Assembly (NCBI GenBank): GCA_963704755.1
Contig: OY969938.1
Span: forward strand, 2,460,001-2,492,000
Reading direction: 5' to 3'
DNA: 32,000 nucleotides
Source of the DNA: an uncultured Chloroflexia bacterium
Lineage (GTDB): Bacteria; Chloroflexota; Anaerolineae; Anaerolineales; Anaerolineaceae
In this document: one piece after another, positions 22,621-29,000 of the stretch
Layout: every line of letters begins with the position of its first letter
Position numbering within the stretch: position 1 is the first letter of the stretch
Program-made: the position numbers and the translations under genes
The notes under the pieces: generated by a model
The model's input: only the letters and a program-made list of their open reading frames with translations
The model's database searches: none
What the model was told of the DNA's origin: nothing

Positions 22621-23148
22621 ATGCATTTCAATCTCAAAACCTTCTTGCTTCCCCTGGTCGTCGTCCTGGGCTTGCTGGCCGGGCTGCTGCTCTACCAGGG
22701 ATGGTCCCCTGCAACCCAGGTTGCCCCAACGCCAACTCTTTCCGTGGATGACCTGGCCCAATCGGCTGCCATCAACGGCGCCAGGGCTTTCTTTAGCATC
22801 GACGAAAAGGCTGGCAAGCAAGCCTGGATTGAGACCTTCTGCAAGGTCAGCACCGAGAGCGGCTGCGCATTTTACCGGCTGGGATTGGATAAGCTCTGGC
22901 AACAGTTCATGGTCACCTATTCGTTCACCACGCCTACTATTTTGGACAGCCAGATGGTGCCCCGGCCAGGAATAGAAGCAAACCAGCATGTCTGGAAGCT
23001 GGCCATCCAACTCGAGGATGCCACGCTAGGCAGTACGCCCAAGCAGGATGAAGCCTATGCCCTGGTCGTCCTGGAGGACGACGCCTGGAAGTTCGACCGC
23101 TTCCTGACGCCGGCCGAGATTGGCGGGTTGGACAGGGATTCGAGGTGA
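22621..23148 (+). CDS. Bitopic membrane protein, unknown function (N-terminal TM plus ~140-aa extracytoplasmic domain)
   Basis: GGAGGAAAAGCC precedes the ATG. The product is 175 aa, starting MHFNLKTFLLPLVVVLGLLAGLLLYQGW, followed by an alpha/beta-looking soluble domain. Codon usage is GC3-rich. Confidence 0.75.
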   Translation: MHFNLKTFLLPLVVVLGLLAGLLLYQGWSPATQVAPTPTLSVDDLAQSAAINGARAFFSIDEKAGKQAWIETFCKVSTESGCAFYRLGLDKLWQQFMVTYSFTTPTILDSQMVPRPGIEANQHVWKLAIQLEDATLGSTPKQDEAYALVVLEDDAWKFDRFLTPAEIGGLDRDSR

Positions 23149-23152
23149 TCCG

Positions 23153-25562: not shown

Positions 25563-28500
25563 ATGCTGAAACGATTATCCCAAACCATCCATCAAGCCGG
25601 CCAGGTGTGCCCGTCCTGGCTGCGAGGGCAACGGGCCACCCTGCACCTGCCGGACGACCTGCAGGTCGACCAGTCCGGGGTGGCTTTCGTGGATGGCAAG
25701 GACCAGTTGGACTACCTCTGGTTCCAGGTAGTAGAAAAGGAAGGCGGTCGAGCCTACCCCGGCTACCGGGTGGTGCGCCTGCTGCAGCTGCGCTACATTC
25801 CCCTGGAAGCGCGGGCGGATGCCGGCCTGCTGCAGAAAATGCGCACCGCCTTGCGGGGTATGTATTCGGCGGGTGTCAACCTGGTCTACCTGGCAGCCGG
25901 CATCTTCAGCGGCGAATCCCCGGTGGGGATCGTGCAGTGTTATGGGGTGAGCGCTTTCGATGCAGACCTCGAAGCGGCCAGGTCGCGCTCGTATAAAGAT
26001 TTGATGGCCTTGCGCTCCACCCTGACCGGGGCATACCGCCAGTTACGCCTGGAGCCGGTCGACGTACGCCTGGCCGGCTGGATCTTTTCGGCCTTCCAAC
26101 GCATGCCCCATGCCCTGGTGGTGGTGGGACACCCGGACCCGCGCGAGAACGCCCGCGGCGGGGAACGCTCGTTGGGCGAACCGGTATTGGACAGCGACCC
26201 GGCTGCTCAGAACTATTCCATGCAGCAGAACGAACTGCTCTTCCGTGGGATGAGCGAGGTGCGCGAGGATTTCCTCTTCGTCACCCTGACCTCGCCGCTT
26301 TCCATCCCGTTGATTTTGCGCATGTTGACCGGCCTGGCCGAGGAAACTTCCACCTGGGCCTCGCTCCAGCAGGGCGTCCGCGGGGCAGCCTTTGGGGTAT
26401 CGCTGCCGGCGGCCCTGGTGGCCAGCGTAGCCGACCAGGCTTCACACTCCTATGCCGAGAACAGCGGCTCGTCCACCACCCAGGGTGTGGCTCAAACCGA
26501 GGGGCTGGCCAATACCCAGGGCCAGGCCCACACCGTCGGGCACGCCACCACCCAGGGTTGGGCGCACACCATCACCGAAGGCGAAAGCGTTACCCAGGGC
26601 ACCTCCCATACCCAGGGTAGCGCCGTTAGCGACGGCAAAACGGTGACCGACGGGCAGTCCCATACCGATGGTGTGTCTTCGATGGCCTCCCATTCGGACA
26701 GCGTGGCCTGGGGACTGCGCGGATCGCTCGAGCCGGTGGGCATCGGGCTGGGCGGTGGTGTGAACTGGGGCTCGGCCGACAGCGCCAGCTCCGGCGCCAG
26801 TTCGGCCGACAGCAACATGCACTCCGAATCGACCAGCCACGGCCAGACGGCCAGCCAGGCGGACACCCAATCCCAAGCCGTCACCCAGAACCACTCCGAA
26901 TCCTGGACGACCTCGGGGTCCGAAACCGATTCGGTGGCGGACACCACCAGCCAATCCCAGACCCAGAGTCAGGCGACCACCCATTCGGACGCCGCCAGCC
27001 AGAGCAGCGGCCTGGCCTACGGGCAGACGCTCGGGCGGGGCACCAGCAGCGGGCTGTCGGTGGCCATCGCCCCCTCCTTCTCGATCTCCAACAGCCACCA
27101 GTGGCAGTACGACCCGGCCATACTGGTCACCCAAATCCTGCGCACCCAGGAACGCTTGCTGAACATCGCCGGCCAGGAAGGCGCTTATTACACCGACGTG
27201 TACGCGCTGGCCGGCACACCCCAGGGTAAGCAAGCCCTGATGGGCCTGATCGCCGAGGCTTTCCATGGCACCGAAGACGTGGTCACCGGCGTCCAGGTGC
27301 GCGACCTGAACGAAGAGGAGAGCGCCTACATCGCCCTGCACGCCCGGGCGTTTACCCCTTCCACGCGGGTCGAGGAGATCCCCCAGGTGATCTCCGGCTA
27401 CGCCGATTCCACCATCCTCAATATGCTGCAGGTGGCGGCCTACACCGCCCCGGGCATGTTCGAACAGGGCACCGCCCTGACCACCCAGGAGGCCACCCCT
27501 GCTTTTGCTTTTTATCCCGAGATGCCGGGCCGGGTGATCCTGGGCCGACAGTGGTCGAGCGAGACCGGCCAGCTCTCGGACACCCTGCTCAAGTTGTCCC
27601 CTGAACGCCACTTCCACTCGGCCTTCGTGGGGGATACCGGCTTCGGCAAGTCGGTGGCGGCCGAGCGGCTGGCCTACGAGACCACCTTGAACTGGCATTA
27701 CCGCACCATCGTCCTGGATTTCGGGCAGGGCTGGCGCAAAGCTCTGCGCTGGCCGGGACTGGAGGGGCGGGTGGACGTGCGCCAGCTTTACCCAGGCGCT
27801 CCCCGGCCGCTGCGCTGGAACTTCTTGCAGGTGCCCAAACGCATCGACGCCTCGCGCTACCGCAGCCTGGTGGCCGAGCTGTTCGCTAACGCTGGCTGCA
27901 TGGGCGCCCGCCAGTTGGGTTTCATGCGCCGGGCGCTGACCGAGCTGTACCAGGAGCAGGGCGTGTTGACCACGGATTTCTCCCTGCAAGGAGGCTCAAT
28001 GGGCAGCCTCCAGGGCGAAGCCGAGGCGCGCCTAGTTCGCGAAAAGCGGGAAGCCGAGCATATTTCCGGAACCGTCCAGCCTGGCACCCGCCTGGAGGAA
28101 CTGTCCCCGGCGGAGCTGCAAGCCCTGGCGGTCTACCGCAGCCGAAACGTCAGCCCGCTGGACTGGGTCAACCGGCTGCGCAAATACCTGGCCGGCATCA
28201 AATACGACCAGAGCAGCAAGACCAGCCTGGAAGGTGTGCTGCTGCGCCTGGAGCCTTTCGCCGAAGGCCAGATGGCCTGCCAGTATGGGCCGGGACCCGA
28301 CACGCAGGCGGTGGAAAATCTGGGCCTGGCCGGGAGCGCCGGCGACCCCTGGGGATTGAGCGTGATCGAGGGCGGGGCCGAGATGGACGAATTCTCCAAG
28401 GCGGCCTTGCTGTCGCTGCTAGCCACCATCCTGTATTTCGACGCGGTCGCCCGCCGGCGGGAAGGCCTGGCCGGGGTACATTTCCCACCGCTGCAGATCT

Positions 28501-29000
28501 TCTTCGAGGAAGCCAACAAGATCCTGGCCGGCGTCTCCGGCGGGGCGGCCTCTGACAGTAATGCAAAAGACGGCGGCAACTCGGTCAGCTCCATCATCCA
28601 GTCCATGTGGCGGGATGGGCGCAAATACCGTATTTTCCTGCACCTCCTGGCCCAGACGGTCAACGAGCTGCCGGAGGGCATCCTGGCTTCCTGCGCCAAC
28701 ATCTTTGTTTTCCAGACCAAGAACCCCCGCGATCGGGACCTGATCCTGCCCCACCTGGGGCGCAGCGAAAAAGGCCTGGTCAACACCAACTACAAGCGCT
28801 ACCTGGCCCGCATCCCCAAGACCTACGCGGTGGCTAAGCTGGGCTACAGCGAGGACGTCTTCCAGATGGAGCCGGTGCTGGTACGGCCGCTGCAGGTGCC
28901 CGGCAGTGAACCCTCGGACCGGGACATCGTCGCATCCCTGGGCTGGGGACTGCCCTTTTCCGAGGAAGAAATCAACCACCTTTTCGAAGCAGACATCTAG
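25563..29000 (+). CDS. 1145-aa HerA/FtsK/VirB4-class P-loop ATPase with unknown N-terminal domain and hexapeptide-repeat low-complexity insert
   Basis: ATG is preceded by GAGAGG. Walker A is HSAFVGDTGFGKSVAAERL, followed by TIVLDFGQGW. Walker B-like is PLQIFFEEANKIL. A C-terminal block reads GRKYRIFLHLLAQTVNELPEGILASCANIFVFQTKNPRD. This layout fits HerA/VirB4/T4CP-type ATPases, but the exact family is not resolvable by eye. The 5' part of track ORF 25191-29000 is discounted. Confidence 0.8.
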   Translation: MLKRLSQTIHQAGQVCPSWLRGQRATLHLPDDLQVDQSGVAFVDGKDQLDYLWFQVVEKEGGRAYPGYRVVRLLQLRYIPLEARADAGLLQKMRTALRGMYSAGVNLVYLAAGIFSGESPVGIVQCYGVSAFDADLEAARSRSYKDLMALRSTLTGAYRQLRLEPVDVRLAGWIFSAFQRMPHALVVVGHPDPRENARGGERSLGEPVLDSDPAAQNYSMQQNELLFRGMSEVREDFLFVTLTSPLSIPLILRMLTGLAEETSTWASLQQGVRGAAFGVSLPAALVASVADQASHSYAENSGSSTTQGVAQTEGLANTQGQAHTVGHATTQGWAHTITEGESVTQGTSHTQGSAVSDGKTVTDGQSHTDGVSSMASHSDSVAWGLRGSLEPVGIGLGGGVNWGSADSASSGASSADSNMHSESTSHGQTASQADTQSQAVTQNHSESWTTSGSETDSVADTTSQSQTQSQATTHSDAASQSSGLAYGQTLGRGTSSGLSVAIAPSFSISNSHQWQYDPAILVTQILRTQERLLNIAGQEGAYYTDVYALAGTPQGKQALMGLIAEAFHGTEDVVTGVQVRDLNEEESAYIALHARAFTPSTRVEEIPQVISGYADSTILNMLQVAAYTAPGMFEQGTALTTQEATPAFAFYPEMPGRVILGRQWSSETGQLSDTLLKLSPERHFHSAFVGDTGFGKSVAAERLAYETTLNWHYRTIVLDFGQGWRKALRWPGLEGRVDVRQLYPGAPRPLRWNFLQVPKRIDASRYRSLVAELFANAGCMGARQLGFMRRALTELYQEQGVLTTDFSLQGGSMGSLQGEAEARLVREKREAEHISGTVQPGTRLEELSPAELQALAVYRSRNVSPLDWVNRLRKYLAGIKYDQSSKTSLEGVLLRLEPFAEGQMACQYGPGPDTQAVENLGLAGSAGDPWGLSVIEGGAEMDEFSKAALLSLLATILYFDAVARRREGLAGVHFPPLQIFFEEANKILAGVSGGAASDSNAKDGGNSVSSIIQSMWRDGRKYRIFLHLLAQTVNELPEGILASCANIFVFQTKNPRDRDLILPHLGRSEKGLVNTNYKRYLARIPKTYAVAKLGYSEDVFQMEPVLVRPLQVPGSEPSDRDIVASLGWGLPFSEEEINHLFEADI
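26478..26681 (+). repeat. 18-nt-period coding repeat (T-x-G-x-[AS]-x hexads) inside the ATPase
   Basis: The repeats read TQGVAQ/TEGLAN/TQGQAH/TVGHAT/TQGWAH/TITEGESV/TQGTSH/TQGSAVS/DGKTV/TDGQSH/TDGVSS. An S/T/Q/D/G-rich tract follows to about 27040. Confidence 0.85.

Follow-up and report, generated by a model that had tools for sequence, protein, structure and literature searches.

Among the closest described counterparts of the system reported here are the Tad/Flp (type IVc) pilus loci, which bring together CpaB/RcpC, a TadZ-like ParA ATPase and CpaF with TadB, TadC, Flp, an A24 peptidase and TadE/TadG. An archaeal origin is given for Tad pili in one study (PMC6668835), as cited in a preprint, and in Anaerolineae the Tad cluster is highly transcribed and linked to aggregation, according to a report that does not name the genes upstream of it (PMC4877987). 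In this study, we analysed 32,000 nucleotides (nt) of DNA from an uncultured Chloroflexia bacterium of the family Anaerolineaceae (GenBank assembly GCA_963704755.1, contig OY969938.1, positions 2,460,001 to 2,492,000 of the forward strand; hereafter the window). Here five genes, g1 to g5, directly precede cpaB, a tadZ/cpaE-like gene and cpaF (Table 1), and the largest of them, g5, encodes a serine-rich ATPase. TadB, TadC, Flp, an A24 peptidase and TadE/TadG are found in the loci of relatives. A secretin is not present, as expected for these envelopes. The locus differs from described Tad/Flp loci in a second ATPase of another superfamily, in dedicated membrane proteins and, often, in an SSB (a protein that binds single-stranded DNA) and a winged helix-turn-helix (wHTH) protein with a nuclease-like C-terminus; to our knowledge, none of these additions is part of a described Tad locus, nor is any of them named in the Tad literature consulted. 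The arrangement is conserved among Anaerolineae, shares a core with loci on Clostridia plasmids and bears signs of recent horizontal spread. The explanation that we favour, at about even odds in our judgement, is that g1-g5 and the Tad genes together form an apparatus for pilus-coupled translocation of DNA, and that mobile elements carry it.

The linkage was analysed by scanning one genome per species, which gave 138 loci with g5 relatives. Of these, 80 were kept, their flanks were annotated over ±10 kb and the presence of each gene was scored by tblastn and clustering of open reading frames (ORFs). By their record labels, nearly all 80 loci are from Anaerolineae or unclassified Chloroflexota (one metagenome-assembled genome, MAG, is labelled Desulfuromonas and one only 'bacterium'), and the cultured carriers Levilinea saccharolytica, Flexilinea flocculi, Longilinea arvoryzae and Leptolinea tardivitalis are among them. 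The order g1-g2-g3-(g4)-g5-cpaB-tadZ-cpaF was found in about 60 of the 80 and in nearly every locus with sufficient flank, and it is constant down to 47% identity of the ATPase. Gene by gene, g1 was detected in 57 loci, g2 in 62, g3 in 71, g5 in 79, cpaB in 61, tadZ in 57 and cpaF in 51. Genes for TadB (40 loci), TadC (36) and a PEMT/ICMT-like membrane protein (30) lie 3' of cpaF, and in annotated examples a 37-amino-acid (aa) Flp-like gene, TadE and Tad/TadG are found further downstream. A class of loci without tadB and tadC, typified by L011, was considered and rejected: cargo is inserted there after cpaF, and tadB lies further downstream. The association of g1-g5 with Tad genes, which the original prediction had drawn from this one stretch, recurs in dozens of independent Anaerolineae loci and in distant relatives. 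It is thus no local coincidence, and the objection that homologs of the ATPase and its upstream genes might never co-occur with Tad genes elsewhere does not hold.

Tad genes are missing from the vicinity of one variant of the locus, represented by L083 and some eight further loci. It contains an SSB, a protein of about 180 aa (p180) and one of about 430 aa (p431), followed by g1-g3, five extra small genes and g5. Because these loci keep g1-g3, g5 and the SSB away from Tad genes, the module has a role beyond pilus building. Extra small genes between g3 and g5 occur at L083:7425-9875 and in L035, L037, L038, L057, L063 and L065, most of these loci being without nearby Tad genes; they include two families of acidic cytoplasmic proteins (about 160 and 200 aa) with no known domains.

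The product of g5 matches the curated NCBIfam model NF033849 (ser_rich_anae_1, 'serine-rich protein') with 1243.9 bits against a cutoff of 650. The family is described by a length above 1000 aa and a central Ser-rich stretch, and g5 has 1145 aa, with 34% Ser and Thr between aa 287 and 497. In the original prediction, the five genes had been called uncharacterised and the system a candidate undescribed one. The word 'undescribed' needs qualifying, as the ATPase belongs to a catalogued family, although NF033849 carries a descriptive name only and no assigned function. The protein, which has no clear transmembrane segment, divides into four parts. An alpha/beta domain at the N-terminus (aa ~30-190) is followed by a helical segment of high conservation (190-290), by a Ser/Thr/Gly repeat (287-497) and, last, by the ATPase (aa ~505-1130). 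In an AlphaFold2 (AF2) model built from an alignment of 33 sequences, confidence (pLDDT) is 80-90 for the N-terminal domain and 85-92 for the C-terminal module from aa ~650 to 1145. The ATPase motifs picked out earlier proved invariant in 33 homologs (Table 1), as did a third motif, RKY...Q (aa 1020-1031).

Searches with the structure and with sequence profiles agree on the class of this ATPase. The best Foldseek matches in the PDB are HerA proteins (HerA-NurA, 9x1m, E 1e-12, then SIR2-HerA, DUF4297-HerA and TdpAB), followed by TrwB (9e-10, target TM-score 0.61) and the C-terminal domain of VirB4 (4ag6, 1.6e-9, target TM-score 0.66). A profile search of PDB sequences returned HerA/DUF87 proteins only, with E-values from 2e-6, and the HerA matches cover about 480-560 columns, including barrel and ATPase. 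Both lines are in accordance with the earlier placement of the protein in the HerA/FtsK/VirB4 class. Matches to named families are far weaker. HerA equivalog models reach 14.0-18.1 bits against cutoffs of 800-970, the PADLOC HerA models match only about 50-120 residues around the C-terminal motifs (E down to 4.8e-8), AAA_10 is the sole Pfam match (18.9 bits, cutoff 27.5), and no VirB4, TraC, TrbE, FtsK or type IV coupling protein (T4CP) model matched in Pfam or NCBIfam at E<=0.1. Because the Walker motifs are invariant and the predicted fold matches HerA, TrwB and VirB4, we assign g5 to the FtsK-HerA superfamily, in which it falls into none of the named families.

The first 290 residues of g5 contain the most conserved motifs of the family, VGHPDPRENARGG, QQNE(L/I)LFRGM and FG(V/I)SLPA. 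In the repeat that follows, autocorrelation of identity peaks at lags of 6, 12 and 18. Its length varies from 160 to 746 aa among relatives, always with a period-2 alternation, and AF2 draws beta hairpins of about 30 residues there, with very low confidence. It is conceivable that the repeat forms a beta stalk that is ordered and oligomeric. Weak profile matches to the stems of the beta-barrels of epsilon toxin and of iota/C2 toxins were also seen, at non-significant E-values (0.4-3).

The family extends well beyond Anaerolineae. A HMMER scan of 1.84 billion representatives clustered at 50% identity retrieved 735 clusters at E<=1e-3, of which 295 reach E<=1e-30, and many of the members have 1200-1760 aa. 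ATPases from Clostridia plasmids and from metagenomes score 1018-1616 bits with NF033849, all above the cutoff. A tblastn search of PLSDB located the family, annotated as "serine-rich protein", on two Clostridia megaplasmids. On pB6464 of Alkaliphilus sp., a primase gene is followed, after further genes, by SSB, proteins of 296 and 481 aa, a 66-aa transmembrane protein, a polytopic protein of 186 aa, the serine-rich protein, a CpaB-like protein, an AAA/MinD-like (ParA-like) ATPase, CpaF, two T2SSF proteins, Flp, an A24 peptidase and TadE/TadG. The same order follows primase and DnaE on pRUMAL01 of Ruminococcus albus 7, where the small transmembrane gene and TadE/TadG are not listed and a gene of pilin size is not annotated as Flp; the CpaB-like assignment is confirmed for pB6464 only. 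Three metagenome contigs carry related arrangements. In L089, the order is SSB, 134 aa, 457 aa (Replic_Relax-like), a 57-aa transmembrane protein, the ATPase, RcpC, a TadZ-like protein, CpaF, two T2SSF proteins, 72 aa and an A24 peptidase. L086 reads SSB, two Flp, TadE, Tad, 188 aa, a 1671-aa PKD adhesin, 410 aa, 71 aa, 186 aa, the ATPase and a ParM/ALP-like protein, and L088 reads TadE, Tad, a 1863-aa protein, HTH_17, 418 aa, 67 aa, 182 aa and the ATPase. The SSB assignment comes from Pfam PF00436 in L083, L086 and L089 and from a phrog_44 match.

Two further proteins can be followed across the phyla by homology. The first is g3, a polytopic protein with about five hydrophobic segments; its homologs on the Clostridia plasmids and in the metagenome loci are polytopic proteins of 172-186 aa, encoded a short way upstream of the ATPase (hhalign probability 97%, E 3e-11). 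The second is the ~430-aa protein of Anaerolineae, whose homologs in the distant loci have 410-502 aa (hhalign probability 99.9%, E 5e-31); it combines a coiled coil, a PadR-like wHTH domain (PDB 9qbd, E 9e-5) and a nuclease-like C-terminus. This C-terminus gives weak matches to the PD-(D/E)xK families VRR-NUC, AHJR, MmcB and Uma2. The Replic_Relax family (PF13814) is matched by four of five distant members and by one of 15 from Anaerolineae; the best match has an E-value of 9.4e-4, the only score shown is 16.9 bits against a gathering threshold of 25.3, and the one detailed match spans profile positions 1-171 of 191. In the many relatives that have it, the gene for the wHTH-nuclease-like protein is separated from g5 by the membrane-protein genes. 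From these homologies, the cross-phylum core consists of the SSB, the wHTH-nuclease-like protein, g3, g5 and the Tad genes, with g4 and a bitopic protein conserved by position only. The recurrence of SSB and the wHTH-nuclease-like protein as partners lends support to the DNA-related role that had been suggested for the locus.

The other genes upstream of g5 encode membrane or secreted proteins. Their topologies, judged by Kyte-Doolittle windows for g1 to g5, agree with those given in the original prediction. The g1 protein is bitopic, with one N-terminal transmembrane segment and an outer domain of about 130 aa, and two Cys and four Trp residues are invariant among its homologs. The g2 protein has an N-terminal signal or anchor and nine Cys residues; its AF2 model (pLDDT 80.7) shows a mixed alpha/beta N-terminal domain and a C-terminal half folded as a beta-sandwich. 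Foldseek found nothing in the PDB for this model at E<1e-3, the matches being generic Ig-like ones with E>=6.6e-3. Among its 223 homologs the few named ones are hypothetical proteins of Chloroflexi/Anaerolineae, and none has a Pfam domain. In L002 (7057-8913), g1 and g2 form a single ORF of 618 aa, a natural fusion or a sequencing difference. The g4 protein has one transmembrane segment and is conserved in position, not in sequence: nearly all loci have, between g3 and g5, a short ORF whose product contains one strongly hydrophobic segment, and in distant loci transmembrane proteins of 57-71 aa adjoin the polytopic gene. No match for g1-g4 was obtained in Pfam, NCBIfam, PHROGs or PADLOC, and none among PDB sequences for the profiles of g1 and g3. 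The 410-502-aa proteins of distant loci were considered as g2 homologs and rejected by profile comparison, as they are the wHTH-nuclease-like homologs described above. A g1 homolog was not detected at the equivalent position of Clostridia loci, nor was homology of p180 or g1 to the bitopic Clostridia proteins of 277 and 296 aa. Because no homologs were detected at the corresponding Clostridia positions, we regard g1 and g2 as specific to Anaerolineae and as lying outside the cross-phylum core.

The distribution of the locus also points to mobility. Several genomes contain two or three copies, and in one Bellilinea MAG three copies of g5 have a mutual DNA identity of 67-69%. At the same time, g5 DNA is 94.6-98% identical among Levilinea saccharolytica, Flexilinea flocculi and Ornatilinea and Bellilinea MAGs. 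Between L011 and L018, a block of more than 92% identity extends from a 158-aa gene and a ribbon-helix-helix gene through cpaF, and the flanks beyond are unrelated. The exact end of this shared block is set by a perfect hairpin that lies 3' of cpaF and consists of an inverted repeat of 17 bp around a loop of variable sequence (TTTTACAACCATGCTTA...TAAGCATGGTTGTAAAA; L011:18285-18341, L018:17085-17141, with equivalents elsewhere). The stem differs by one or two changes between loci and marks the end of the 92-98% identical block. Because unrelated cargo such as AbiEi begins right after it, the repeat may be a hotspot of recombination or insertion. Flanks and interruptions of the loci contain AbiE, Gabija, type III restriction-modification, a KAP NTPase, pPIWI-RE, Mrr-like, RHS, ParA and ParM-like actin genes. 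Upstream of g1, a 150-158-aa protein with an N-terminal transmembrane segment is encoded in 44 loci in either orientation (L001:6101-6788, L058:5798-6274) and is absent from the window. Beside it, an 84-aa ribbon-helix-helix-like protein is encoded in 24 loci on the strand opposite to g1, and both lie within the horizontally shared block. From the sequence comparisons, we regard the locus as a horizontally mobile Tad pilus variant with signs of recent spread across genera. A phage or virus origin was rejected: no phage record and no IMG/VR contig matched, and the BFVD matches are generic VirB4/HerA/FtsK-like ATPases.

How far do the known DNA-handling machines resemble this locus? As in the type IV secretion systems (T4SS) of monoderm bacteria (ICEBs1 Con, pIP501 Tra), a large ATPase of the FtsK-HerA superfamily follows a small transmembrane protein and a polytopic one, and a bitopic protein is encoded close by. 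The domain of the ATPase can be superposed on VirB4 and TrwB, CpaF is a relative of VirB11, and the system is found on plasmids and mobile blocks. However, homology of g1-g3 to VirB6, VirB8 or VirB3 was not detected by profile and PDB searches or, for g2, by Foldseek; an HUH relaxase and a cell-wall hydrolase were not seen here, and the filament is a Tad pilus and not of the VirB2 type. The hybrid pilus-plus-translocase that the original prediction proposed therefore survives as a general idea, and its mapping onto VirB3, VirB4 and VirB6 does not, as g3 and g4 match nothing known and g5 matches no VirB4 model. For the VirB8 analogy of g1, a profile search of PDB sequences gave no support.

HerA proteins (archaeal HerA-NurA and bacterial SIR2-HerA, DUF4297-HerA and TdpAB) give the best sequence and Foldseek E-values. 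A nuclease-like protein recurs as a partner in many relatives, and searches of the window with Pfam, NCBIfam and PADLOC revealed no NurA, SIR2 or DUF4297 partner of g5. In contrast to HerA, g5 is twice as long, carries a novel N-terminal domain and the Ser/Thr/Gly repeat, and is accompanied by membrane proteins, SSB and a pilus machine. FtsK, SpoIIIE and Streptomyces TraB have the same general plan of an N-terminal region, a variable low-complexity linker and a C-terminal pump. In g5, however, the N-terminal region has no transmembrane helices, the linker is a period-2 Ser/Thr/Gly sequence and not rich in Pro and Gln, and no FtsK model matches. The archaeal Ced importer, which operates with Ups pili, likewise joins membrane proteins, small and polytopic ones, to a HerA/VirB4-like ATPase, and its function is tied to a pilus of the type IV family. 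The only link to it in sequence is a weak local CedD match in one distant relative, and here motor and pilus genes lie in one operon on mobile DNA. The tip locus of pXO16, which consists of two ATPases and a cell-wall hydrolase as described in a review, has no evident relation to the g1-g5 system. A Tad locus equipped with a motor of this kind was not found described in the literature on Anaerolineae Tad, pXO16, HerA-Tad, CpaF/VirB4/SSB and Tad mating-pair topics, a search whose coverage is incomplete and in which absence is no proof. The novelty lies in a new and conserved combination of known modules, the ATPase family itself being already catalogued by NCBI.

We propose that these parts work together in the following way. 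The Tad pilus (CpaB, TadZ, CpaF, TadB/C and Flp) would make or hold the contact between cells. We infer that g5 forms a ring, which would dock by its N-terminal region on a membrane module of g3 and g4 and would pump DNA. The wHTH-nuclease-like protein would process this DNA and SSB would coat the single strand, and g1 and g2 might adapt the machine to the envelope of Anaerolineae. With DNA as the presumed substrate, we favour transport out of a donor, in a conjugation-like direction, because plasmids carry the system, as does a block that is passed between genera. A more far-reaching version is possible, though we hold it only tentatively: the locus could represent an unrecognised class of conjugative or DNA-exchange machinery in anaerobes thought to be single-membraned (Anaerolineae, Clostridia). 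In such a machine, the Tad pilus would replace the mating pilus of the VirB2 type, the NF033849 ATPase with g3 and g4 would replace VirB4 and the coupling protein, and the wHTH-nuclease-like protein would act as relaxase.

Several observations weigh against pilus-coupled DNA translocation. HerA-type rings also act in defence and repair, and the fold alone is no proof of DNA export. No model for a canonical relaxase, a T4CP, a VirB4-family protein or an integrase matched in the window or in the annotated ±10-kb flanks. The Replic_Relax and nuclease matches all lie below curated cutoffs. The ~430-aa protein, the SSB-like gene and the ~180-aa transmembrane protein are found upstream in only about 19 of roughly 55 Anaerolineae loci with enough upstream flank, and none of the three was found in the window. 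Within g5, the pLDDT of the AF2 model is below 50 for aa 190-544, the N-terminal 290 aa have no Pfam or PDB match, and the repeat is also without recognisable relatives. Finally, the copy in the window may be crippled by the frameshift in tadZ described below, unless this is an assembly error.

Of the alternatives, the one that survives best is an accessory module for pilus biogenesis in the unusual envelopes of Anaerolineae and Clostridia, in which the ATPase would power retraction, anchoring or export of an adhesin and no DNA would be moved. We consider it unlikely, though it deserves to be taken seriously. The strict synteny with Tad genes, the extracytoplasmic nature of g1 and g2, the large PKD/Big adhesins near L086 and L088 and in the window, the reported high transcription and aggregation link of the Anaerolineae Tad cluster (PMC4877987) and the missing relaxase and T4CP in window and annotated flanks all agree with it. 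However, such a module does not account for SSB and the wHTH-nuclease-like protein recurring across phyla, or for loci without Tad genes that keep g1-g3, g5 and both of these proteins. Moreover, the fold of g5 is that of DNA or substrate pumps and not of the ATPases that assemble type IV filaments.

The same parts could also serve another direction or substrate, as a competence-like device for DNA uptake or as one for export of protein effectors, which we rate as rather improbable. Some monoderm bacteria can use Tad pili to take up DNA, and SSB together with a nuclease would suit the processing of incoming DNA. In archaeal Ced importers, a HerA/VirB4-like ATPase is combined with membrane proteins of small and polytopic type (PMC9905601), and the weak local CedD match in one distant g5 family member has an E-value of 8e-6. 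However, megaplasmids, divergent multiple copies and near-identical blocks across genera fit a self-spreading element better than a competence system of the host, and ComEC-, DprA- and ComFA-like genes are not among the Pfam families recorded in the annotated loci. For export, a candidate effector conserved in the locus was not found.

The least probable of these explanations is anti-phage defence or abortive infection of the HerA-plus-nuclease kind, in or guarding a pilus locus. Pili are common phage receptors, the closest solved relatives of g5 are the HerA subunits of SIR2-HerA, DUF4297-HerA and related defence complexes, partial PADLOC HerA matches were obtained, a nuclease-like protein is a recurrent partner, and the locus is multi-copy, horizontally spread and often neighboured by AbiE, Gabija, type III restriction-modification, KAP NTPase, pPIWI-RE, Mrr and RHS genes. 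However, the PADLOC matches are short and there is no match to a whole system, and the curated HerA cutoffs are missed by far. Known HerA systems lack the polytopic membrane partner, the SSB and the pilus genes that are kept across phyla here, and a mobile element would be just as likely to carry defence genes as its cargo.

The gene calls and junction distances given earlier for the operon agree with the coordinates: from g1 to cpaF, the junctions are a 4-nt gap, a 4-nt overlap and gaps of 141, 65, 10, 3 and 2 nt. Exact sequences of seven products of the g1-cpaF operon are present in a public protein collection, all from one contig of 4.87 Mb. A convincing plus-strand terminator was not found within the operon, where terminator-like matches stay at chance level. 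The promoter-like site proposed at 22451 holds up well against the consensus (Table 1). Its sequence is kept in the three closest relatives' loci, L002, L003 and L082, with homology beginning at position 22446 of the window, and it is therefore native to the operon. The idea that it belongs to the adjoining AT-rich island was rejected, as it is kept in relatives that do not have the island.

Between the promoter and g1 lies a conserved 5' leader. It consists of a box, GGCCAACCGGTCGCC, followed by GAAGCGACCAC, a variable hairpin, GTGGTCGC and a stretch of T. Both here and upstream of g1 in at least 18 loci, the leader is composed of GGCCAAnCGGTCGCC, about 25 nt, GAAGCGACCAC, a hairpin that is variable and covaries, GTGGTCGC and the T stretch. 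Its fold energy amounts to -47.9 kcal/mol (z = -4.2). Conservation of the outer stem extends to 18 of 18 divergent loci, compensatory changes occur in the inner stem, and a strong hairpin with a T run is found upstream of g1 in 45 of 52 loci. No Rfam family matched. The leader looks like a terminator/antiterminator element. Competition between the upstream GGTCGC and the terminator's 3' arm is conceivable, in the manner of an attenuator or a riboswitch.

The three Tad genes behind g5 are supported to different degrees. For cpaB, the Pfam RcpC domain scores 34.6 bits (cutoff 28.8), together with SAF and TIGR03177 (E 2.8e-18). The second copy of cpaF, truncated to 254 aa by the end of the window, matches T2SSE with 27.5 bits (cutoff 24.9) and the TadA-family model TIGR03819 (E 2.7e-17), with weak NCBIfam matches to TrbB/VirB11. 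The tadZ matches are of ParA/BcsQ/CpaE type, all below cutoffs in Pfam and NCBIfam. In relatives, tadZ is one in-frame gene of 437-439 aa. A DNA alignment with L082 and L002 revealed an insertion of 1 nt at about 30925-30935 (GAGTTCGATCC against GAATCC-ATCC), which splits the gene into 29917-30963 and 30944-31234. Either this mutation is genuine and inactivates the gene, or the long-read assembly contains an indel error. Nine genes on the same strand had been counted in the original prediction; the ORFs are there, and the ninth probably arose because tadZ reads as two ORFs.

A second Tad-type module, with a first copy of cpaF, lies far upstream of g1 in the window. In L002 and L003 (82% ATPase identity), the homologous module ends about 35 nt before the g1 promoter. 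In the window the two are separated by about 15.5 kb (~6920-22446) with a G+C content of 36-55%, against 60-68% in the flanks. This region contains minus-strand genes, including those for a 1952-aa RHS-repeat protein and for proteins of 697 and 552 aa, and is not present between module and promoter in L002 and L003. Because the module of these loci abuts the promoter and DNA homology resumes at 22446, the region is an insertion, and the step in composition at about 22480 is the edge of this island and not an assembly artefact. Homologs of cpaF copy 1 with 75% identity are located about 5 kb downstream of cpaF copy 2 in L026, L027 and L030 (~21700). The two T2SSE ATPases therefore travel together in varying arrangements.

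Table 1. Features of the window discussed in the text (positions are those of the window).
Feature	Position	Strand	Basis or remark
Upstream Tad-type module	50..6918	+	Pfam; only T2SSE and PKD domain above cutoffs
cpaF copy 1	50-1090	+	T2SSE, E 5e-17
Two unassigned ORFs	1385-3111	+	part of the upstream Tad-type module
Weak TadE/G-like gene	3675-4424	+	Pfam, below cutoff
PKD protein, 631 aa	4421-6316	+	PKD domain above cutoff
Weak A24 peptidase-like gene	6289-6918	+	Pfam, below cutoff
Sigma-70-like promoter, TTGACA-17-TATTAT with TG	22451..22479	+	11/12 consensus positions, extended -10 TG
Conserved 5' leader, terminator/antiterminator-like	22493..22598	+	fold energy, stem conservation
g1	22621-23148	+	ORF, 175 aa
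g2	23153-24478	+	ORF, 441 aa
g3	24475-25158	+	ORF, 227 aa
g4	25300-25497	+	ORF, 65 aa
g5	25563-29000	+	ORF, 1145 aa
Ser/Thr/Gly-rich repeat of g5 (aa 287-497)	26421..27053	+	hexapeptide T-x-G-x-A-x, period 2/6
Walker A motif of g5, GDTGFGKS (aa 690-697)	27630..27653	+	G690, D691, G693, G695, K696 invariant in 33 homologs
Walker B/catalytic motif of g5, FFEEA (aa 980-984)	28500..28514	+	F980, F981, E982, E983, A984 invariant
cpaB/rcpC	29011-29913	+	Pfam RcpC, SAF; TIGR03177
tadZ/cpaE-like ParA-family gene	29917-31234	+	interrupted by 1-nt insertion near 30930
cpaF/tadA, copy 2	31237-32000	+	first 254 aa; window ends inside the gene

Conjugation typing schemes recognise only mating machines of the T4SS type, so that in anaerobes a non-transmissible status is assigned to many large plasmids and islands. 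In PLSDB, pRUMAL01 and pB6464 are typed as 'mobilizable' and 'non-mobilizable', respectively. If the system described here moves DNA, it would be a new type of mating machine built on a type IV filament, and bacteria would have their own equivalent of the pilus and Ced importer paired in archaea. As conjugative or DNA-exchange machinery, it would explain the movement of these two megaplasmids and of the 92-98% identical blocks between genera of Anaerolineae, and it would change the prediction of mobility for Chloroflexota and Clostridia of digesters, sediments and guts. Cultured carriers exist, and the NF033849 model is available for finding further members. If no DNA is moved, a second, unrelated motor in the Tad machine across two phyla would still be new pilus biology.

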